A stretch of 28,026 nt of DNA from Pseudomonadota bacterium. Its GTDB lineage: Bacteria; Pseudomonadota; Gammaproteobacteria; Beggiatoales; Beggiatoaceae. Position 1 is the first letter of the stretch. Each line of letters opens with the position of its first letter. Shown one piece after another: positions 150-23,544 of the stretch. The translations under genes and the position numbers were made by a program. The stretch lies in assembly GCA_039799345.1 (NCBI GenBank), contig JBDLSS010000163.1, positions 1 to 28,026 on the forward strand, read 5' to 3'. Under the pieces are notes generated by a model that saw nothing but the letters and a program-made list of their open reading frames with translations, was not told the DNA's origin and made no database searches.

Positions 150-3100
150 ATGACCCGTTGGCTTTTTTTCCTCCTCCTGCTCAGCTTGTCTCATTTTTTA
201 AGTGCCGCCGAAAATATCCCCAGTGCCACCACCACCTTAAGCCTTGACCCGCTTAATACGGTACTTAGCCCCGAGTTTATTACTCAACGTCAGGAAAGTT
301 TAGCCGAGCTTGAGGCAAATTTAGCGCGAAAAAATGCGAAGTTACAAATAGATCAGCAGGAATTGCCCAACAAAATTGCGCAGCTTGATGTCAACAAAGT
401 CACGCAGAAAATTTTAGACAGCGCGATTTTAGAACGCGATACGGCGCAAGTTGAAGTCAAAAATGCAGAAGTCGAAGTTCAAAATGCGGAAAATGCACAA
501 CGGGAACACATTAACGTCATTACCAAATTACAAAATGATCTCAATGTATTACGCAAAACCCCATCGCCAGCAGAACAAGTTGCAGCACAAACCCAGCAAA
601 TTACCGATCTGGAAAAAAATATTACTTTACAAAAGGCAGCACGCGAGTTAGATGATCGGCAATTGCATATTAATAAACAGCGGGGTGATTTGGCAGTTAA
701 GCGTTTAGCTTATTCAGAACAATGGGTTGTAGCGGTTCAAAAACTTTATCAAACCCGCCAAAAACAAAGTTTAACCGAGCAAAATCAACAGGAATGGCAG
801 CGTTATGTTGAAGAAACGGCGGATTTACGCGCCCAATTGGAAAAAACGCAACTCCCAATCCAACGTTATCTTTTAGAAATCAAACTACAACTTGCTGAAG
901 AACATCAACAAAAACGCGAGCGTCAGTTAAAACTCCAAAATATACAGAATCAACTTGCTGAATTTGAAACTGCCAGCACCACCCCCCACACCGCAAAAGT
1001 TTCACAAGAAATGATTCGACAAGCGGATGTGGTGCTGAATGAAATTAAAGACAGCAATAATATTTTAGACAGTAAGCTCCAAATTTTAGAGAAACAATTA
1101 CAAGCGACTCGAAAGAATAATGAAGTGTTGCTCGGAATGGAATTAAAAATTGGTAACGAAATTGAGAAAAGTCTCGACAGTACAATCAAAGAGTTGACCC
1201 CGCAACATGCCTTAATTCGTGATCTGAGCAAAACGGCAGCCCAGCATTTAAGTAATTTGACCACGCTTTATCAAACGCGGCTGCGGGAAATGTTATTGCG
1301 GCAGCGAGTTTTGCCCAAAAATTGGAGCGAATGGCAGGATATTTTTAATGAAATAAGTAACTTGCCTCTTATGTTTCTACAGCAAGTCCATACGTCAAGC
1401 CAAAGTTTTATACAAACTTTTCAGCGAATGAGTGAAGGCTCTATCTTCATGTTGGGTTTGGGGAGCACTTTATGGCTTACAGTATTTTTATGGTTTTATA
1501 CGTTACTTGGGGATGTACTCAAACAGTTAGACCGCCCAAACGCAGTTCGTGTGCACAGTGAGGTGTGGCTACGCCTGCTGCGCATGAATTTAATTGGTTT
1601 GGCAATGACAGGCATTATTCTAGTAGTTTCATGGATTGCACAGCCACACCATTCCAGTTTATTGCTTACCCACACGCTGGTATTTTTATGGCTAGGGGTG
1701 AAATTTCCGCTTAATCTTTCACATTTAATTTTATCAGGGCGTTATCTCTCCGATATTCGGCAACGCTCTAAAATTTATCATCAATTGCGCTGGAGCGTGA
1801 TTGCGACGGGAACGTTCACAGCAATTACCTCTATCGTACATTTATTGCCAATTTCTTTAATCTTGCGCGATTTATTTGACAGCATTTTCATGCTGTTATT
1901 ATCGCTGACCACTTTTCCTGTGCTGTTTATCCGCCGCATTACCTTGGCAATATTGGAAAACAGTTTAAAAGGCTATTGGCTTTCGGTAGTGGGTTTGAGC
2001 AGCCTCTTATTGCCCTTATCAATCTTTGCCGTCGCGTTATTAGGCTTAGTGGGTTATATCAATTTGGGCTGGACGGTCGCAAAATTACTCAGCTTATTTT
2101 TATGCGTGTTCACATTATGGTTAATTACGCGCGGCTTCTTGTCGGACTTAATTGGTCTGTTGAAAAATTTCGCACTTAAGCACAGCAAATATGGCTTGTT
2201 ATGGACACAAGACATTATTCCCTTGCTGCACAAACTATTAGATACTGCCTTAATTTTATTAGGAATTGCCTGTTTTTTTTGGATTAACGGCTGGTTTAAT
2301 GATGTCGCCGTCATGGAAAATGTTAAAAGCTTTTGGCATTACCCGCTGCTTAAAATGTTGCGCGTGCAAGTCACTATCGGCAATTTATTATTGTTAGGTT
2401 TTAGTCTATGGCTAATTTTTTGGTTTGGGCGTTGGTCGCGACAAATTACTTATCGTTGGATTTATTCCAGCATCAGTGACTTAGGCATTAGAAATAGCTT
2501 ATCAGTTTTTACTCAGTACGCAGTCATTTTAATTGGTTTGTTAGTAACTTTGCGTTTATTAGGGGTGGATTTAACCACACTCACGGTGTTCGCAGGCGCA
2601 TTGGGGGTGGGGATAGGTTTTGGGCTACAAAATATTGCCAATAATTTCATCAGTGGGATTTTATTGCTGATTGAACGCCCCTTGCGCACGGGGGACGTGG
2701 TCAATATCTCACAATTTGAAGGGATCGTAACTCATATCGGTATCCGTTCCTTGACACTGACCACGTCAGAAAATCAAGAAGTTATCATGCCAAACTCTGA
2801 ATTATTATCAAGGGCTTTTGTAAATTTGACCCATAGCGATTCAAGTGTGCGCACGACCTTATACATCACCACCAGTTATGACGATGATCCGCATAAAGTT
2901 GTGCAAATTTTACGAGATATTTTGTATGAAAATGCAGAAGTGTTAAAAGAACCGCCTTCGCAAGCCTTATTGTGGGATTTTGGAGACTTTTCGGTGAAAT
3001 ATCGGATTGATTTTTTTGTGAATTTACAAAAGGCAAGTCGTAGTCAGGTACGTTCACAGTTGTTTATGACAATTTGGGATCGTTTTAAAACAGCTGGAAT

Positions 3101-16612: not shown

Positions 16613-19600
16613 TCAAGCAGGCTTACTCCGCAACTGCACTTCTTTGCGCAACATGTCCCGCAATTCTTGCACCGCAGGATCACGAAATTCGATACGGTAT
16701 AAAGTCAAAATCAAATCAAATAAACGCGGAAAATATAGCCCAAGCTCCCGAAAGTCGCCATAAGAACGCCCCCGCAATAACGGCGGCAACGCTGTCCGCG
16801 CTTCCCCTTCCAAAAGCAAAGGAATCACCGTATTTTTTTCAGCCTCCGTAGCTAATAAACGTTGTGCGATTAAATCCACTTCCGCCGCCACCACACTGCC
16901 CAAATTCGAGACTTTATTTTCATATTTATCCAAATACAACGGCACGCCCACCACTACAATAAAATCGCAATGCTCAATTCGACTGATGAAACGCGACACG
17001 CTAGACCCCAGCGTTGAATTGTCCCAATCGTCTAAAATCACCTCAATGCCCGCATCCTGCATATCCATCGCCAGCTTTTTCACCCAGCGTTCCTGCGTGT
17101 CCACGCCCCAGGCATAGCTGATAAACACCAAAGGTACTTTTCCCTGCCCGCGCCCGCGCAAATAACTTTTCACCCACACCAAGGCTTTGGCATACACCGT
17201 GCGTTCCAGCGCGGAAACTTGTTCACGCTCCAAGGTTTCACGCGTCACCGCCGATAAATGTTGCTCTCCTCGCTGTGACAGAAAAGTAATTTTGCCGCCG
17301 CACTCGCCACAAAACATGAAGGCTTTTTGCGCTTTTAAACGTTTAGCGATTTCACTGCGTTCTTGATGATAATTACAAATGCTACACACTACAGGCGGAT
17401 AGCGTTGAATAACAACTTCACGCCCGCGCAGAAAACGTTCAAATAAGCCTTGAAACAGCAATTTTGTGGATTCTTGCACTTTATAAGAATAATACAGCAC
17501 AAACTCCAGCTCGCCTTCACGCTCTTCAATCTTGCGAAAGCCACAAATTTCGCCCGCGCCTAATTCATATTGCGCTTGATTATGCCATTGTTGCACCCGT
17601 AAAAAAGTGTTGGTATAACCCAATAACACCACTAACGCCGCATATAAGTTTTCAATTGCGCCCGTGACTGCATACGACATATCTTCAAAAATCGGGATTT
17701 TATCCACCGCAGGACGTTTTTGATTAATTAAGCTGGGAAAGACTAATAAACTTTCGCCGTTGTAACTTTCACGAAAACAGAGGGTATGCTCTAAAAATAG
17801 TGCGAGAGCGGCATCTAGTAACACTTCTTTTTCGGTGGGTGTCAGTTCAGATAATTCGGGTAAATCATATTCACCACGCAACACCCGTGATTCTTCCAAC
17901 GCGCCCAAACCTTTTTCATTGCGTCGCGCTTCTAAAATTAAAGAAGAGGCTAAATTACTTAATAAATCAGGTGTTAATAAAATGCTGTATTTTCCCGCAG
18001 AACCCCGTAACAAAGTGATATAGCCATGATTTGCCAGATGTTGTAGCGCAGTTAATAATTCTGCTTGGCTGAATTGCCATGATTCTTCACGTTTTTGCAA
18101 AGATTGCTGTAATTCTTCAAGATTTAATAAAGTATTTTTACGGCGTGGCTGGTCTTTTAAAGCCAATACAAATTCTTTAATGCGTTTAAACGTTAGCGTG
18201 GTCACGGTGGCGGTCATGGTGTCCCAACGCAAAGCTTGCCGCACCCGTGTTTTCAAAGCGTGCAAACCTTCGCCCGTCATTGCGCTGGAAATCAAATAGC
18301 CTTCGCTGACTTCGTGCTGCTGACAAAATGCGTCTAATTCTTCGGCGGTCAAAGTCGGTGCGCCTCGGTCACAACGCGCCCCGACTAATAAAGTACGACA
18401 GTGATTTTCTTTATTCGCGCTACCGAGCTGTCGCAACCAATATTCCACGCCTTTGAGCGGTTCTTGCTGGTGGCTGGGGTCAAATAACACAATCGCTAAA
18501 TCGACTTCGTCCAAAAATAGCGCGTGAACCAGTCGATAATCGGGTTGTCCCGCCAAATCCCATAATACGGCTTCGCATTCGGTGCCGTCGCTGCGGGTCA
18601 CTTTGAGGTCGGGAATAATCCAAAATTGTTGCCCGTGGGTGGAGGCGTGTTCTTTGAATTCGTTGTGTGCTAATCGCCAGCCTAAGCCTGTTTTGCCTAC
18701 GCCGCTGTCACCGACGAGCACAATTTTGGCGGTGGTGTAATGTACCGTTGTGGCAAGCGTGGGAACTGGGGTTGTCGGTTTGCTGAAGGATGTGCCCAAG
18801 GCGCGTAAACGACTGAATAATCCTGAAAAACTACTTTCACTGCTGGCGCGGGGCAGGGCTAATAAACGCGCGGTGTCGAGTTTCCACAGGCGAATTTCAC
18901 GATCTTTTTTGCCCAAACTTGCCAACATCGGTTCGGTGGGATGAAACGCTAAACCGCCTAACCATAATTGATGATCCGTGGGTTCTTGCAACACGGTGAG
19001 TAAACTGCAATCTTCGGTACGCCATAAACGCACGCTGTCGTCGTCGGATTTGGAGGCGAATAATTGCCCATCGCGTGAGCAGGCGAGTTTGTAAACCACG
19101 TCGGTGTGCCCTTCCAAAACCCGCGCTTGTCGCCCGGTGATGATTTCCCACACCCGAATGGTTTTATCGCTGCTCGCAGAAAAAAGTAGCGGTTGCGTGG
19201 GCGAAAATAACACGCTGAACACCATGCCTGAATGCGCTTTTAAAGTGCGTAATAATTGCCCGGTGTCGGGATGCCAGAGGCGAATCAGTTTGTCATCTGA
19301 ACCTGAGGCGAGCATGTTGCCGTCGGGTGACCATGCGACGCTGTTGACGTTGCGGGCGTGGGCATTGAGGCTGTGGCGTACTTGCCAAGTGCTGGTATCC
19401 CATAATAAAACCGTGCCATCATCCGCGCCAGAAGCCAGCAAACTGTCGTCGGGCGACCATGCCAAGGCATTAATGCTGCCTGCGTGTTGTTTCAAGCTGT
19501 GGCAAAGTATGCCCTGTTGATCCCAAATATGAATGCTTTTATCATTGCCGCCTGCCGCCAAATAGTGACCTTGTTGTGACCAGCAGGCAATGCGCGGGTA

Positions 19601-19783
19601 GCCGCTGGGGCAGGGCAGGCATTGTAATAAATTGCCTGTCGCGGTTTCCCAACACAGCAAGCTGTCGTCAAAGGAGGAGGATACCAGCACGCGCCCATCG
19701 GGAGACCAATGTAAACCATTGATGGCGTTGGTATGTCCTTCGAGGGTTTGATAAAGGCTAAAGCCTTCGGGAATAGCGGTCAT
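16613..19783 (-). CDS. WD40-repeat / Roc GTPase / COR / Zn ribbon / TIR-SEFIR multidomain (ROCO-type) protein
   Basis: Seven WD40 repeats (aa ~10-302); G1 GDSGVGKT (358-365), G3 WDLAGQ, G4-like GARCD, G5 SSAMTG; COR-like region with FPSL; CxxC-21-CxxC (800-828); TIR-like VFISYAW...WVKKLA...GIEVILDDW (885-1030). Confidence 0.85.
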   Translation of the reverse strand: MTAIPEGFSLYQTLEGHTNAINGLHWSPDGRVLVSSSFDDSLLCWETATGNLLQCLPCPSGYPRIACWSQQGHYLAAGGNDKSIHIWDQQGILCHSLKQHAGSINALAWSPDDSLLASGADDGTVLLWDTSTWQVRHSLNAHARNVNSVAWSPDGNMLASGSDDKLIRLWHPDTGQLLRTLKAHSGMVFSVLFSPTQPLLFSASSDKTIRVWEIITGRQARVLEGHTDVVYKLACSRDGQLFASKSDDDSVRLWRTEDCSLLTVLQEPTDHQLWLGGLAFHPTEPMLASLGKKDREIRLWKLDTARLLALPRASSESSFSGLFSRLRALGTSFSKPTTPVPTLATTVHYTTAKIVLVGDSGVGKTGLGWRLAHNEFKEHASTHGQQFWIIPDLKVTRSDGTECEAVLWDLAGQPDYRLVHALFLDEVDLAIVLFDPSHQQEPLKGVEYWLRQLGSANKENHCRTLLVGARCDRGAPTLTAEELDAFCQQHEVSEGYLISSAMTGEGLHALKTRVRQALRWDTMTATVTTLTFKRIKEFVLALKDQPRRKNTLLNLEELQQSLQKREESWQFSQAELLTALQHLANHGYITLLRGSAGKYSILLTPDLLSNLASSLILEARRNEKGLGALEESRVLRGEYDLPELSELTPTEKEVLLDAALALFLEHTLCFRESYNGESLLVFPSLINQKRPAVDKIPIFEDMSYAVTGAIENLYAALVVLLGYTNTFLRVQQWHNQAQYELGAGEICGFRKIEEREGELEFVLYYSYKVQESTKLLFQGLFERFLRGREVVIQRYPPVVCSICNYHQERSEIAKRLKAQKAFMFCGECGGKITFLSQRGEQHLSAVTRETLEREQVSALERTVYAKALVWVKSYLRGRGQGKVPLVFISYAWGVDTQERWVKKLAMDMQDAGIEVILDDWDNSTLGSSVSRFISRIEHCDFIVVVGVPLYLDKYENKVSNLGSVVAAEVDLIAQRLLATEAEKNTVIPLLLEGEARTALPPLLRGRSYGDFRELGLYFPRLFDLILTLYRIEFRDPAVQELRDMLRKEVQLRSKPA

Positions 19784-20440: not shown

Positions 20441-20448
20441 AAAAAATG

Positions 20449-20556
20449 CGTAGGTTGGGTTGGCGACTAGCCAACCCAACAAAGATGCGGCGTGAAAGTT
20501 AGGATTGTGGGTGATTTGAGGTTAATGTTGGGTTGCCGTTTGCAACCCAACCTACG
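20449..20556. repeat. GTAG-type REP doublet (REPIN-like), copy B2
   Basis: Perfect 14-bp terminal inverted repeat CGTAGGTTGGGTTG/CAACCCAACCTACG; two internal hairpins; 220 bp from B1. Confidence 0.9.
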
Positions 20557-20580
20557 CGGCTAGTTACAAACCCCGACCAG

Positions 20581-23544
20581 CTAGGGGGGAAAAGAAACAA
20601 CACGGAAACCGATGTCGTTGTGCCTGTCGTCGCTCCCACCCGAGTAGCCGCTGCAACGAAAGGCAGAACGACAGTCATCCGCATGGTGGCCCCAAGAACC
20701 ACCGCGCAACGGGCGATTTCCATCACCATTTTCTGAACCATAAGCCGTACCATCTGCACTGGCATCTGCAAAATTACGATGCCACTCGTCTTGACACCAT
20801 TCCCACACATTACCGTGCATATCGTACAAACCAAAAGCATTGGGAGGAAATGAGCCAACGTCTACAGTTTTTCCACGACATAAGCCTTTAGGCATCCCTT
20901 CACAAGGATAATTCCCATTATAATTCACTAACTCTGGCGTAATAATGTATCCAAAGTGATATTCCGTGGTTGTTCCTGCACGACAGGCATATTCCCATTC
21001 CGCTTCACTGGGCAAACGAAACCCATTTCCCAACTTTTGACAAAATTCCTTAGCTTGTTTCCAAGTCATATTTTCCGCAGGTAAATTGTCGCCTTTAAAA
21101 TATGAAGGATTTTCACCCATCACCGCTTTATATTGCGCTTGAGTCACCGCATATTTCCCCATATAAAATGGCTGCAAATGAAAAGTTTTACCGTATATTT
21201 CCAGCTCACCTTCAGGAATATAAACCATTTCCAAAGGCACACCATTGGGTAATTTATGGGTGATTTGGCGGGCTTTACATTGACGTTTTTTCTGTTTCAA
21301 AATGGCTTCGGAAACGACTTTTTCAACCTTTTTCGTAGTTAAACCAAACCAAGCAGGTTCTTCCACAATAATTGTTTTTCGTGGTTCAACTTCTACCGTC
21401 ACAGTTTCAAAACTAAACTCAGTCTCTTGAAAATTAGTGACTTTAGCGGGTTGACTCGGACTCACTTTAGGCAGCTGTGCTGCTGCCGCTGCCAACGCAG
21501 CCGCTTGCCGCTGTTTCTCTGCCAACTCAGCCAACAAACGCGCTTTTTGCTCCTCACTTTGAATAGCTTGCGTTTGCGCCATTAAAGCTTCAATTTCAGC
21601 CGCTAAAGTCTGCGCTTGTTTCAAAGCATCCTGTTTTTCCTGAGATAAAGCTGCATTTTTCGCTTCCAAGTCTGCCAGTTTTTGCTGCAAATCCGCCTGT
21701 GCTTTTTTCTCCGCTTTTGCCTTCGCTTTAGCCGCTTTTTTAACCTCCTCCGCTGCCAACTCCTCCGCAAGCCGCTGCTTATCCAAACCCAGCGCGTTCT
21801 CAAAAAACACAATCAAATCCGCAACCGCAGGACGTTTTTCAATCTGAACCTCAACACAATCACACAGAATATGACGCACTGCTTCAGGCAAATCACGCTC
21901 CAGACAATACTCAGGTCGCTTTCCACTGTACAACTGCATCAAAGTTTTTCCATAACTAAACACATCGGTTTTAGCCGTGGGTTTACCCAGTCTTGAATCT
22001 TTCATTTCAGGCGCGGCATAATCCCAAGTGCCCGCCATTTTTAAACTCAAAGTGGAAGATTTAGAATGCGACAAAGCTTTCTGTTTCAAACTTCTGCCCA
22101 CATGCGACAGCCCAAAATCAATAATTCTGACCGTCACCCCTTCCGCAGTTTCCAGCAATAACAAATTAGACGGCTTCAAATCCAAATGCAGCACCCCACA
22201 TTCATGCGCCGCCTGCAAACCCCGCGCAAGACTCAAAGCCACCTGAAACCCCGTTTCCCCTTGCAACACCCCGCGCTGCGCTAACCACATTTCCCCATCA
22301 ATCGCATTTTCAATATATTCCGTAACTAAAAATGCTTTTTCGCCATAAAATCCTTCTGACAAGGGACGCGGCACATAACGACTGTCCACACGTTCCATCG
22401 CCAAGGCTTCGTTAAAAACTTCATGCGGTTCGCCCTGTGGCATTTGCCAAAAACACTTCAACACCACCAAACGTTTTCGAGAAAGCCATGTCGCCAAAAA
22501 CGCACAACCCATCCCGCCCGCCCCTAACAACTTCTCCAAACGGAATAATTTTGGGTCATGCAGCGCAAGCGAGCGGTCTAATTCAATGGCTTCTTGCAAA
22601 TGCTCAAATGCAATTTGATTAAATTCCGACAAGCTATAACGCAAATACACCTGAAATAAATTGAAATGCACCAAAGCCCGCTCAGAATTTTGTTGCGCGA
22701 GCTGTAATGCCTGTTCCAATAAATGCCGCGCCTCCTCCAATTCTCCCAAAGAAAACGCCGCACTGCCCGCCATCAAACAAGCTTTTGCACGCTCCGCAGG
22801 ATTCAAAGGCGTGCGTTTTAATTTACCCACCGCCTCGCCAATCAATTGCATCGATTGTGAACTGACGTGTTTAAATTCATCCTCCGCTTCAATGCGCGGC
22901 GCAATCCCTTGTGCTTCCAAACGCGAAATTAATGCTGTAACTTTTTGCAATTCGTCATAAATGCCCGCCGTTTGCAAAGCCGTTAAACGCTCATTAATAC
23001 TCGGATTGTTCCGCAAAAAGAACTCAATCGCATTGCCCAGCAAATTCTGATGCAGTAAAAACGCTTCAACTTCAGTTTCTAAAACGGTCAGCGTTTTCAA
23101 TTGTTGCAACAATAAAGCAGTCATGTTGATTTGCCCTTTTGGCGAGACCAACACCGCTAAATCCAGCTCACTGTGAATTTCAGCAGCGAATAATTGCGGC
23201 GCGAAACTCTGCAAATTGCCACACGCTTTTGCCAATTGGGTTTTAAATTGTGCAGTTTCAGGCTGGGCAGCGTGAAAAAACGTGGGCAAATAATACGAAT
23301 GCACTTGCCGTTTAAACTGCTTTTTTATTTTGGAATGGGCAACATCAAGCAGTGAAGGTGAGCAAACATTTTGGATAACGCTTAAAGCATCTTTAAACGC
23401 CAATTGATAAGCTTCTGACATTTGATAAGCGGATAAAGTCCAGTGTTTACGTAACACCGCGATAATTTTATCTTTATTACCCGTTGCCAACTCACCGAGT
23501 TCTAATAAAGACTGTAAACCTGATTCAAGTAGCGAAGAAAGCAT
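20581..23544 (-). CDS. Ser/Thr protein kinase with N-terminal helical domain and TPRs, coiled coil, and C-terminal FGE-sulfatase-type (C-type lectin fold) domain
   Basis: Hanks motifs LGAGGMG, VVLK, HLDLKPSN, IIDFG, GTWDYAAPE, DVFSYG (aa 334-585); TPR-like helices ~250-325; A/E/K/Q coiled coil 590-690; FGE motifs VTQAQY, RLPSEAEWEYACRAG, PNAFGLYDMHGNVWEWC, RGGSW...GFRVV. No signal peptide or TM seen. Confidence 0.92.
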   Translation of the reverse strand: MLSSLLESGLQSLLELGELATGNKDKIIAVLRKHWTLSAYQMSEAYQLAFKDALSVIQNVCSPSLLDVAHSKIKKQFKRQVHSYYLPTFFHAAQPETAQFKTQLAKACGNLQSFAPQLFAAEIHSELDLAVLVSPKGQINMTALLLQQLKTLTVLETEVEAFLLHQNLLGNAIEFFLRNNPSINERLTALQTAGIYDELQKVTALISRLEAQGIAPRIEAEDEFKHVSSQSMQLIGEAVGKLKRTPLNPAERAKACLMAGSAAFSLGELEEARHLLEQALQLAQQNSERALVHFNLFQVYLRYSLSEFNQIAFEHLQEAIELDRSLALHDPKLFRLEKLLGAGGMGCAFLATWLSRKRLVVLKCFWQMPQGEPHEVFNEALAMERVDSRYVPRPLSEGFYGEKAFLVTEYIENAIDGEMWLAQRGVLQGETGFQVALSLARGLQAAHECGVLHLDLKPSNLLLLETAEGVTVRIIDFGLSHVGRSLKQKALSHSKSSTLSLKMAGTWDYAAPEMKDSRLGKPTAKTDVFSYGKTLMQLYSGKRPEYCLERDLPEAVRHILCDCVEVQIEKRPAVADLIVFFENALGLDKQRLAEELAAEEVKKAAKAKAKAEKKAQADLQQKLADLEAKNAALSQEKQDALKQAQTLAAEIEALMAQTQAIQSEEQKARLLAELAEKQRQAAALAAAAAQLPKVSPSQPAKVTNFQETEFSFETVTVEVEPRKTIIVEEPAWFGLTTKKVEKVVSEAILKQKKRQCKARQITHKLPNGVPLEMVYIPEGELEIYGKTFHLQPFYMGKYAVTQAQYKAVMGENPSYFKGDNLPAENMTWKQAKEFCQKLGNGFRLPSEAEWEYACRAGTTTEYHFGYIITPELVNYNGNYPCEGMPKGLCRGKTVDVGSFPPNAFGLYDMHGNVWEWCQDEWHRNFADASADGTAYGSENGDGNRPLRGGSWGHHADDCRSAFRCSGYSGGSDDRHNDIGFRVVSFPP
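20590..20715 (-). other. Putative DGR variable repeat (VR) at the 3' end of the kinase-FGE gene
   Basis: Invariant frame RGGSW..C RSA.R..R..GFRVV with variable positions encoded by GGC CAC CAT / GAT GAC / TTT / TGC AGC GGC TAC / AGC GAC GAC / CAC AAC GAC ATC, all reachable from AAC/AAT by adenine substitution. No template repeat or RT in the window. Confidence 0.6.

Follow-up and report, generated by a model that had tools for sequence, protein, structure and literature searches.

The 28,026-nt contig JBDLSS010000163.1 (assembly GCA_039799345.1), hereafter the window, carries on its minus strand a gene (20581..23544) whose 3' end raises two questions: was it written by a diversity-generating retroelement (DGR), and is it still being rewritten? 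[quoted passage not shown] DGRs copy AAC and AAT codons of a template repeat (TR) with errors at the adenines, which yields NNC and NNT codons. A preliminary description of the window had proposed the gene as a remote DGR target. The reading favoured here, with a probability of about 55%, is that the gene encodes a member of the kinase-CLec variable-protein family with a DGR-written variable region (VR) that is probably now orphan or quiescent. The last ~35 codons of the lectin domain would have been written by mutagenic homing.

Codon usage and divergence of the lectin tail

The whole VR-like segment occupies 20596..20709 (minus strand) and includes the scaffold codons LRGGSW, CRSA, R and GFRVV; this nucleotide scaffold is shared within the genus only. 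The variable stretch itself, codons 952-978 (20611..20691, minus strand), contains 17 NNY codons (Y being C or T), broken by the fixed CRSA and R codons. Fourteen of the 17 end in C and three in T, exactly as listed in the preliminary description. Its statement that all positions between the invariant residues end in this way was slightly overstated, as four further codons (GCG, TCG, GGT and GGG) are present there, three of them ending in G. The TCG-GGT-GGG run sits in the extra stretch of a variable loop that is longer in the window copy. The length of this loop, delimited by two arginines, was correctly perceived as unusual: it counts 10 residues, compared with 7 in the paralog on contig C323 and in the TR of a family relative (G010), and 5 in a caspase-FGE tail of the genus.

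The third-position bias changes abruptly at the tail. C is found at the third position in 9% of codons 1-947, in 10.5% of the codons of the upstream FGE part, where T reaches 42%, and in 50% of the codons of the tail. Among two-fold degenerate codons ending in C or T, the tail has a C:T ratio of 12:4 and the upstream part one of 30:154 (Fisher p=1.7e-6), which bears out the DGR-type codon signature first noticed by eye. Mutagenesis at the adenines of AAC/AAT template codons is expected to leave such a pattern. In the proposed mechanism, these codons would have been copied with adenine errors to give the NNC and NNT codons of the tail. The gene shares this trait with DGR targets: its 3' end holds, within a CLec/FGE fold, a VR that varies at the first and second positions of AAY-derived codons.

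Paralogous 3' ends, which it had been suggested to look for, are present. The bias of the tail is shared by six of the 11 FGE-domain genes of the genome (on contigs C323, C413, C271, C91, C163 and C391; p<=5e-4) and is absent from the other five. In the close paralogs of C323 and C413, the differences upstream are mostly at third positions, and those in the tail are nearly confined to the first two positions of NNY codons. These two genes (C323, 4168-4866; C413, 1458-2186) are ~90% identical upstream, have tails of equal length and form the clearest DGR-type pair in the genome.

One close homolog of the window protein was found in the protein database (P0002, 90% identity). It is encoded on a 21-kb metagenome contig (L087; sample JGI 3300019776 / SRR6058016) from a closely related organism, whose carAB-greA block shares 94.7% DNA identity with a contig of the window genome. 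DNA identity between the two orthologs is 88-99% along the gene and falls to 59-69% over the tail. Counted by codon position (1/2/3), the tail has 8/5/3 differences and the rest of the gene 50/32/136 (p=9e-4), and the scaffold codons LRGGSW, CRSA, R and GFRVV show one difference in 16. The tail is therefore far from invariant among orthologs, the changes affecting mainly positions 1 and 2. To judge from this alignment, the tail must still have been diversifying once the L087 lineage had split off.

Search for a template repeat and diversifying machinery

The window genome is a metagenome-assembled genome (MAG) of 2.77 Mb, in 464 contigs, with a completeness of 86%. It was scanned in full for a TR without gaps, any mismatch being allowed where the candidate has A, and by blastn-short. 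The tail scaffold follows the pattern GGTGGTTCTTGG ... TGTCGTTCTGCC ... TTCCGTGTTGT, and AAY was expected at the variable codons of the TR. Neither the scan nor blastn-short retrieved, from this incomplete MAG, a TR for the window tail or the five other VR-type tails. No reverse transcriptase (RT) was detected in the MAG with PF00078 even at E<=10, no Avd with PF05635, and a tblastn search with the DGR RT and Avd of G010 returned nothing. Exact-scaffold scans of the GTDB species genomes, of JGI metagenome contigs and of IMG/VR retrieved only other gene ends or nothing, and no TR. The tail had no blastn match in phage and plasmid collections. The TR, RT and Avd that should accompany a remote DGR target were thus not found in the genome as assembled, nor was a cognate TR found in the public genome, metagenome, virus, phage and plasmid collections that were searched.

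A fragment on contig C91 (about 746-851, minus strand) was considered as a TR and rejected. It is 50% identical to the window tail and at most 63% identical to any tail, and its mismatches are not confined to its own adenines, so that it is not the cognate template, nor that of any other tail in the assembly. The fragment (locus L004) is a free-standing VR-type gene end of ~135 nt, running from LRGG to the stop outside any ORF. This copy is separated by 70 nt from a kinase-FGE gene upstream of it, adjoins an IS4-type transposase fragment at the contig edge, and may be what is left of a DGR cassette or of a second target. The paralog on C391 was also rejected as a template, since its 74% identity comes with indels and it is a VR-type gene end in its own right.

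Absence of a TR and RT from relatives had been named as evidence that would count against a DGR. On this point genus and family differ: none was found in the genus, and canonical DGRs are present in the family. The congener G002, a Thiotrichaceae bacterium MAG that is 99% complete in 30 contigs, gave no RT match with PF00078 even at E<=10, nor in protein and tblastn searches with the DGR RT of the relative. The sole RT-like gene in the genus assemblies (G001:C157:1-1302, locus L063) is cut by a contig end; ~350 residues precede its RT domain, and its sequence does not look DGR-like. The three VR-like tails of G002 have the same length and carry scaffold changes, among them L to W, R to L and F to V. 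This decay points against ongoing homing, which would erase scaffold changes.

Of 55 family genomes, just the window genome and G002 have an exact match to the nucleotide scaffold of the window tail. The latter encodes a secreted caspase (peptidase C14)-FGE fusion (G002:C3:547533-549090; locus L068 2534-4090) with the same tail scaffold as the window kinase. As the scaffold is shared by caspase-FGE and kinase tails, one template family would once have served targets with different N-terminal domains. Elsewhere in the family, a canonical DGR comprising target, Avd, RT and TR is found on G010:C67, where the VR shows 13 A-to-N differences from the TR, and a target, Avd and RT are found on G012:C570.

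The 3' flank of the gene is made of repeats. The stop and the last codons are supplied by a truncated generic intergenic repeat (20563..20587, minus strand; starting CCCCTAGCTGGTCGGGG), which also follows other VR-type genes, as well as unrelated ones on C36, C330 and C352. Beyond it lie a REP-type hairpin with a 10-bp stem (20527..20552, minus strand) and a second REP-type hairpin with a T run (20441..20480, minus strand), the latter read off the sequence as the putative terminator of the gene. The other VR-type genes have one of three repeat families within a few bases downstream. No DGR-specific homing signal, whether a downstream hairpin or cruciform or an initiation of mutagenic homing (IMH) element, which is definable only against a TR, could be recognized in the flank. 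The motif directly after the stop (CCCCTAGC, then GGTCGGGGTTTGTAAC) was rejected as a DGR recognition hairpin because it is a generic intergenic repeat, found downstream of unrelated genes as well. The first REP hairpin was rejected as a DGR cruciform, as its family has 112 copies in the genome and is not DGR-specific. The motif AAGGATTCTTCACCCTTAG, found after other tails, was rejected as a conserved IMH since it forms the end of a TGTCTGAAC-cap repeat element and is present in places without a tail too. MITE-like elements have been reported to invade DGR loci (PMC10907252).

The intergenic repeat of which 20563-20587 is a truncated copy starts CCCCTAGCYGGTCGGGGTTTGTAACCCCGAC, is ~100 nt or more long and was also found on C36, C330, C352, C413 and C91 of the window genome and on L087 (6531-6630). 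Several VR-type FGE genes have their stop next to it or take the stop from it, namely the window gene, its ortholog, those of C413 and C91, and a kinase-FGE gene of G002. Its presence right after VR tails looks commoner than chance. Small genes that share the N-terminal stretch PNYDPLTYKIIGCAMEVHKKMGNGF are located just downstream of two VR-type genes (C391, 2211-2666; C91, 220-372); their products are reminiscent of the GxxExxY family, which we take to be a candidate assignment.

Variation in the source population was assessed in Logan contigs. The window is almost complete in two runs, X1 and X2, of one freshwater sample. The contigs span the tail without any difference at 11.5x in X1, where the kinase part is at 12.9x, and at 8.6x in X2. 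The variation that had been anticipated in the tail was thus not visible in the source sample, where a single tail sequence is present at full depth in contigs that drop rare variants. This argues against strong diversification in that population, weakly, because of that suppression of rare variants. In wastewater runs, alleles or paralogs ~90% identical were found, and the alignments end inside the tail. Sequences with about 90% identity are present in runs X3-X9.

Active, quiescent or never written

The idea of a remote DGR target therefore stands in part. The codon imprint and the hypervariability between orthologs support it; template, RT, Avd and variation in the sample do not. The gene was not classed as an active DGR target because the TR, the RT and Avd were searched for and not found. 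An orphan VR is favoured because a generic repeat replaces the native 3' flank, because RT, Avd and template are missing from the assemblies, because the scaffold decays in G002, and because the sample holds a single tail. With the cognate TR, RT and Avd undetected in the genome or the genus, the VR would be an orphan, its tip most likely frozen, or at best quiescent. We infer past DGR action and present inactivity from these features.

Several points weigh against this reading. Absence of the machinery is not proven by a MAG that is 86% complete and in 464 contigs, as repeat-rich or mobile DGR loci assemble and bin poorly. Six tails with intact scaffolds, together with strong divergence from an ortholog that is 92% identical, would mean that diversification went on until fairly recently. 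Low-level diversification in the source population could persist, rare variants being lost from Logan contigs. Adenine specificity, the defining test of a DGR, needs a TR, and the DGR origin is here deduced from codon positions. Finally, the ortholog tails also differ by indels: their variable loops are unequal by 5 codons, and there is a further insertion of 5 codons just upstream. Since adenine mutagenesis from one template produces no indels, different templates or other processes are needed to account for them.

The alternative that survives best is that of an active remote target, tentatively retained as the less probable reading. A DGR cassette would be present in the organism and missing from the MAG, being unassembled, unbinned or mobile, and would rewrite the six tails in trans. 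The incompleteness and high fragmentation of the MAG leave room for such a cassette, and so does the orphan VR/TR-like fragment beside an insertion sequence fragment at the edge of C91. Activity would also fit six imprinted tails with intact scaffolds, a tail that has diverged far from that of a close ortholog with a nearly unchanged scaffold, and the canonical DGRs elsewhere in the family. Remote and trans targets are documented (PMC10907252, PMC7517822). Against it, RT, Avd and TR were not found in three genus assemblies, one of which is 99% complete, and no template-like sequence emerged from the genome, metagenome and virus scans or from blastn against phages and plasmids. In addition, the contigs of the source sample contain a sole tail sequence at full depth, and a generic repeat occupies the 3' flank where homing signals would lie.

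That no DGR ever acted, and that the tail results from positive selection on a binding loop, from gene conversion among FGE paralogs or from a horizontally acquired segment with another codon usage, is very improbable: this would suit the indels between ortholog tails, which are not a DGR product, the many paralogs available as conversion donors and the lack of a TR or RT for the window tail, but selection or conversion leaves unexplained a synonymous T-to-C flip restricted to variable two-fold codons and to exactly those paralogs with variable-looking tails, as well as changes that avoid third positions, a pattern that matches real VR/TR pairs of family relatives and the TvpA class.

Protein architecture, related systems and significance

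The kinase belongs to the Hanks type (Pkinase domain, residues 335-545; 21910..22542, minus strand; Pfam E=2.5e-26). Every catalytic motif is present: GAGGMG, VVLK, HLDLKPSN, DFG and APE. HLD in place of HRD makes it a non-RD kinase. The HLDLKPSN catalytic loop corresponds to residues 453-460 (window 22131-22154), and the C91 paralog also has HLD. Non-RD kinases are over-represented among the innate immune receptor kinases of plants and animals. Upstream of the kinase, a single weak TPR-like motif (residues 253-286; 22687..22788, minus strand) was matched by TPR_8/TPR_2 with E ~5e-5, under the gathering score. Downstream, a linker rich in Ala, Lys, Glu and Gln (~residues 590-690; 21475..21777, minus strand), read off the translation as a putative coiled coil, leads to the lectin part.

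No transmembrane helix was found in the protein, the best 19-residue Kyte-Doolittle mean being 1.25, and its N-terminus has no signal peptide; the protein is therefore predicted to be cytoplasmic. An intact kinase free of export signals, as first described, is thus what the sequence encodes. The gene is followed by a co-oriented WD40-Roc-COR-TIR gene (window 16613-19783). Conserved linkage of the two was rejected, as the L087 ortholog lies between an NHL-repeat gene and radC.

The C-terminal domain (residues 786-983; 20596..21189, minus strand) is an FGE-sulfatase domain of CLec fold, TvpA-like (PF03781, E=8.5e-44). Among solved structures, the C-terminal 248 residues have TvpA of Treponema denticola (PDB 2Y3C) as top match (E=4e-25), ahead of PvdO and of true formylglycine-generating enzymes. 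The FGE-type CLec fold first recognized by inspection is thereby supported, and the window tail aligns onto the C-terminal segment of TvpA that is its variable region. TvpA is a lipoprotein with a neighbouring DGR. Its fold is that of the window domain; it differs in standing alone, with 294 residues in the solved chain, whereas the window gene encodes a 987-residue cytoplasmic kinase fusion with no detectable DGR. The target of G010:C67 is also of the FGE type, is 54% identical to the window lectin domain and has its VR at the 3' end. Unlike the window protein it comprises 383 residues and no kinase, and its nucleotide scaffold differs from the genus-specific one of the window.

The order of domains, an N-terminal Hanks-type kinase and a C-terminal FGE-type CLec, is that of the Ser/Thr kinase-CLec variable-protein family. 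The same pair of Pfam domains occurs in hundreds of homologs in the protein database, including proteins of Thiomargarita, Parabeggiatoa and cyanobacteria; the cyanobacterial ones include proteins annotated as 'bifunctional serine/threonine-protein kinase/formylglycine-generating enzyme family'. In cyanobacteria, kinase-CLec proteins have been described as DGR targets, together with 76 remote targets and numerous paralogs that are not diversified (Vallota-Eastman et al. 2020, PMC7517822). Like the window gene, they combine an N-terminal Hanks-type kinase, a C-terminal CLec/FGE domain and a VR at the extreme 3' end, and like the window genome their genomes hold many dispersed paralogs, some of the cyanobacterial ones with template homology and some without. 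The window case differs in its host, a gammaproteobacterial Thiotrichaceae-type MAG, and in its longer variable loop; moreover, with no DGR cassette found in the genome or genus, no template can be assigned.

In multicellular bacteria, cytoplasmic CLec targets joined to Pkinase and other signalling domains have led to an antigen-sensor hypothesis, and incomplete DGR loci and targets diversified in trans have been reported (PMC10907252). Thiohalocapsa PB-PSB1 offers a close parallel (Dore et al. 2024, PMC10907252), with C-terminal CLec domains joined to signalling domains including Pkinase in proteins predicted to be cytoplasmic, and with loci degraded by transposons and MITE-like elements. Unlike in the window, RTs and TRs are present there and diversification was measured in natural populations. 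FGS domains have also been placed in conflict systems (PMC7159879).

The notion of an intracellular diversifying receptor-kinase is therefore not new, having been in print for cyanobacteria and multicellular bacteria (PMC7517822, PMC10907252, PMC7159879). For the cyanobacterial proteins, ligand sensing or selection of substrates for the kinase was proposed (PMC7517822). By analogy with the published kinase-CLec variable proteins, the lectin tip of the window protein may bind a ligand and thereby control or direct the kinase.

The window gene is a further example of a published protein class, in a gammaproteobacterial lineage, and not a new system or mechanism. With it, the kinase-lectin variable proteins of DGRs, published for cyanobacteria and purple sulfur bacteria, are also represented in a freshwater Thiotrichaceae-type lineage, in a clean case where a hypermutation imprint survives and the retroelement is undetectable in the genus. 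A more speculative and rather improbable view is that this genus of filamentous-type sulfur bacteria keeps DGR-written tips on kinases and caspases, six of them in the MAG, with no DGR of its own. If so, a once-adaptive repertoire may have been frozen and retained as a family of germline-encoded receptors, or the tips may occasionally be rewritten by an RT and a template delivered in trans by a non-chromosomal mobile element or a phage. Cases of this kind would be useful for studying how long DGR-written repertoires persist after loss of the writer, and whether remote targets are served in trans.

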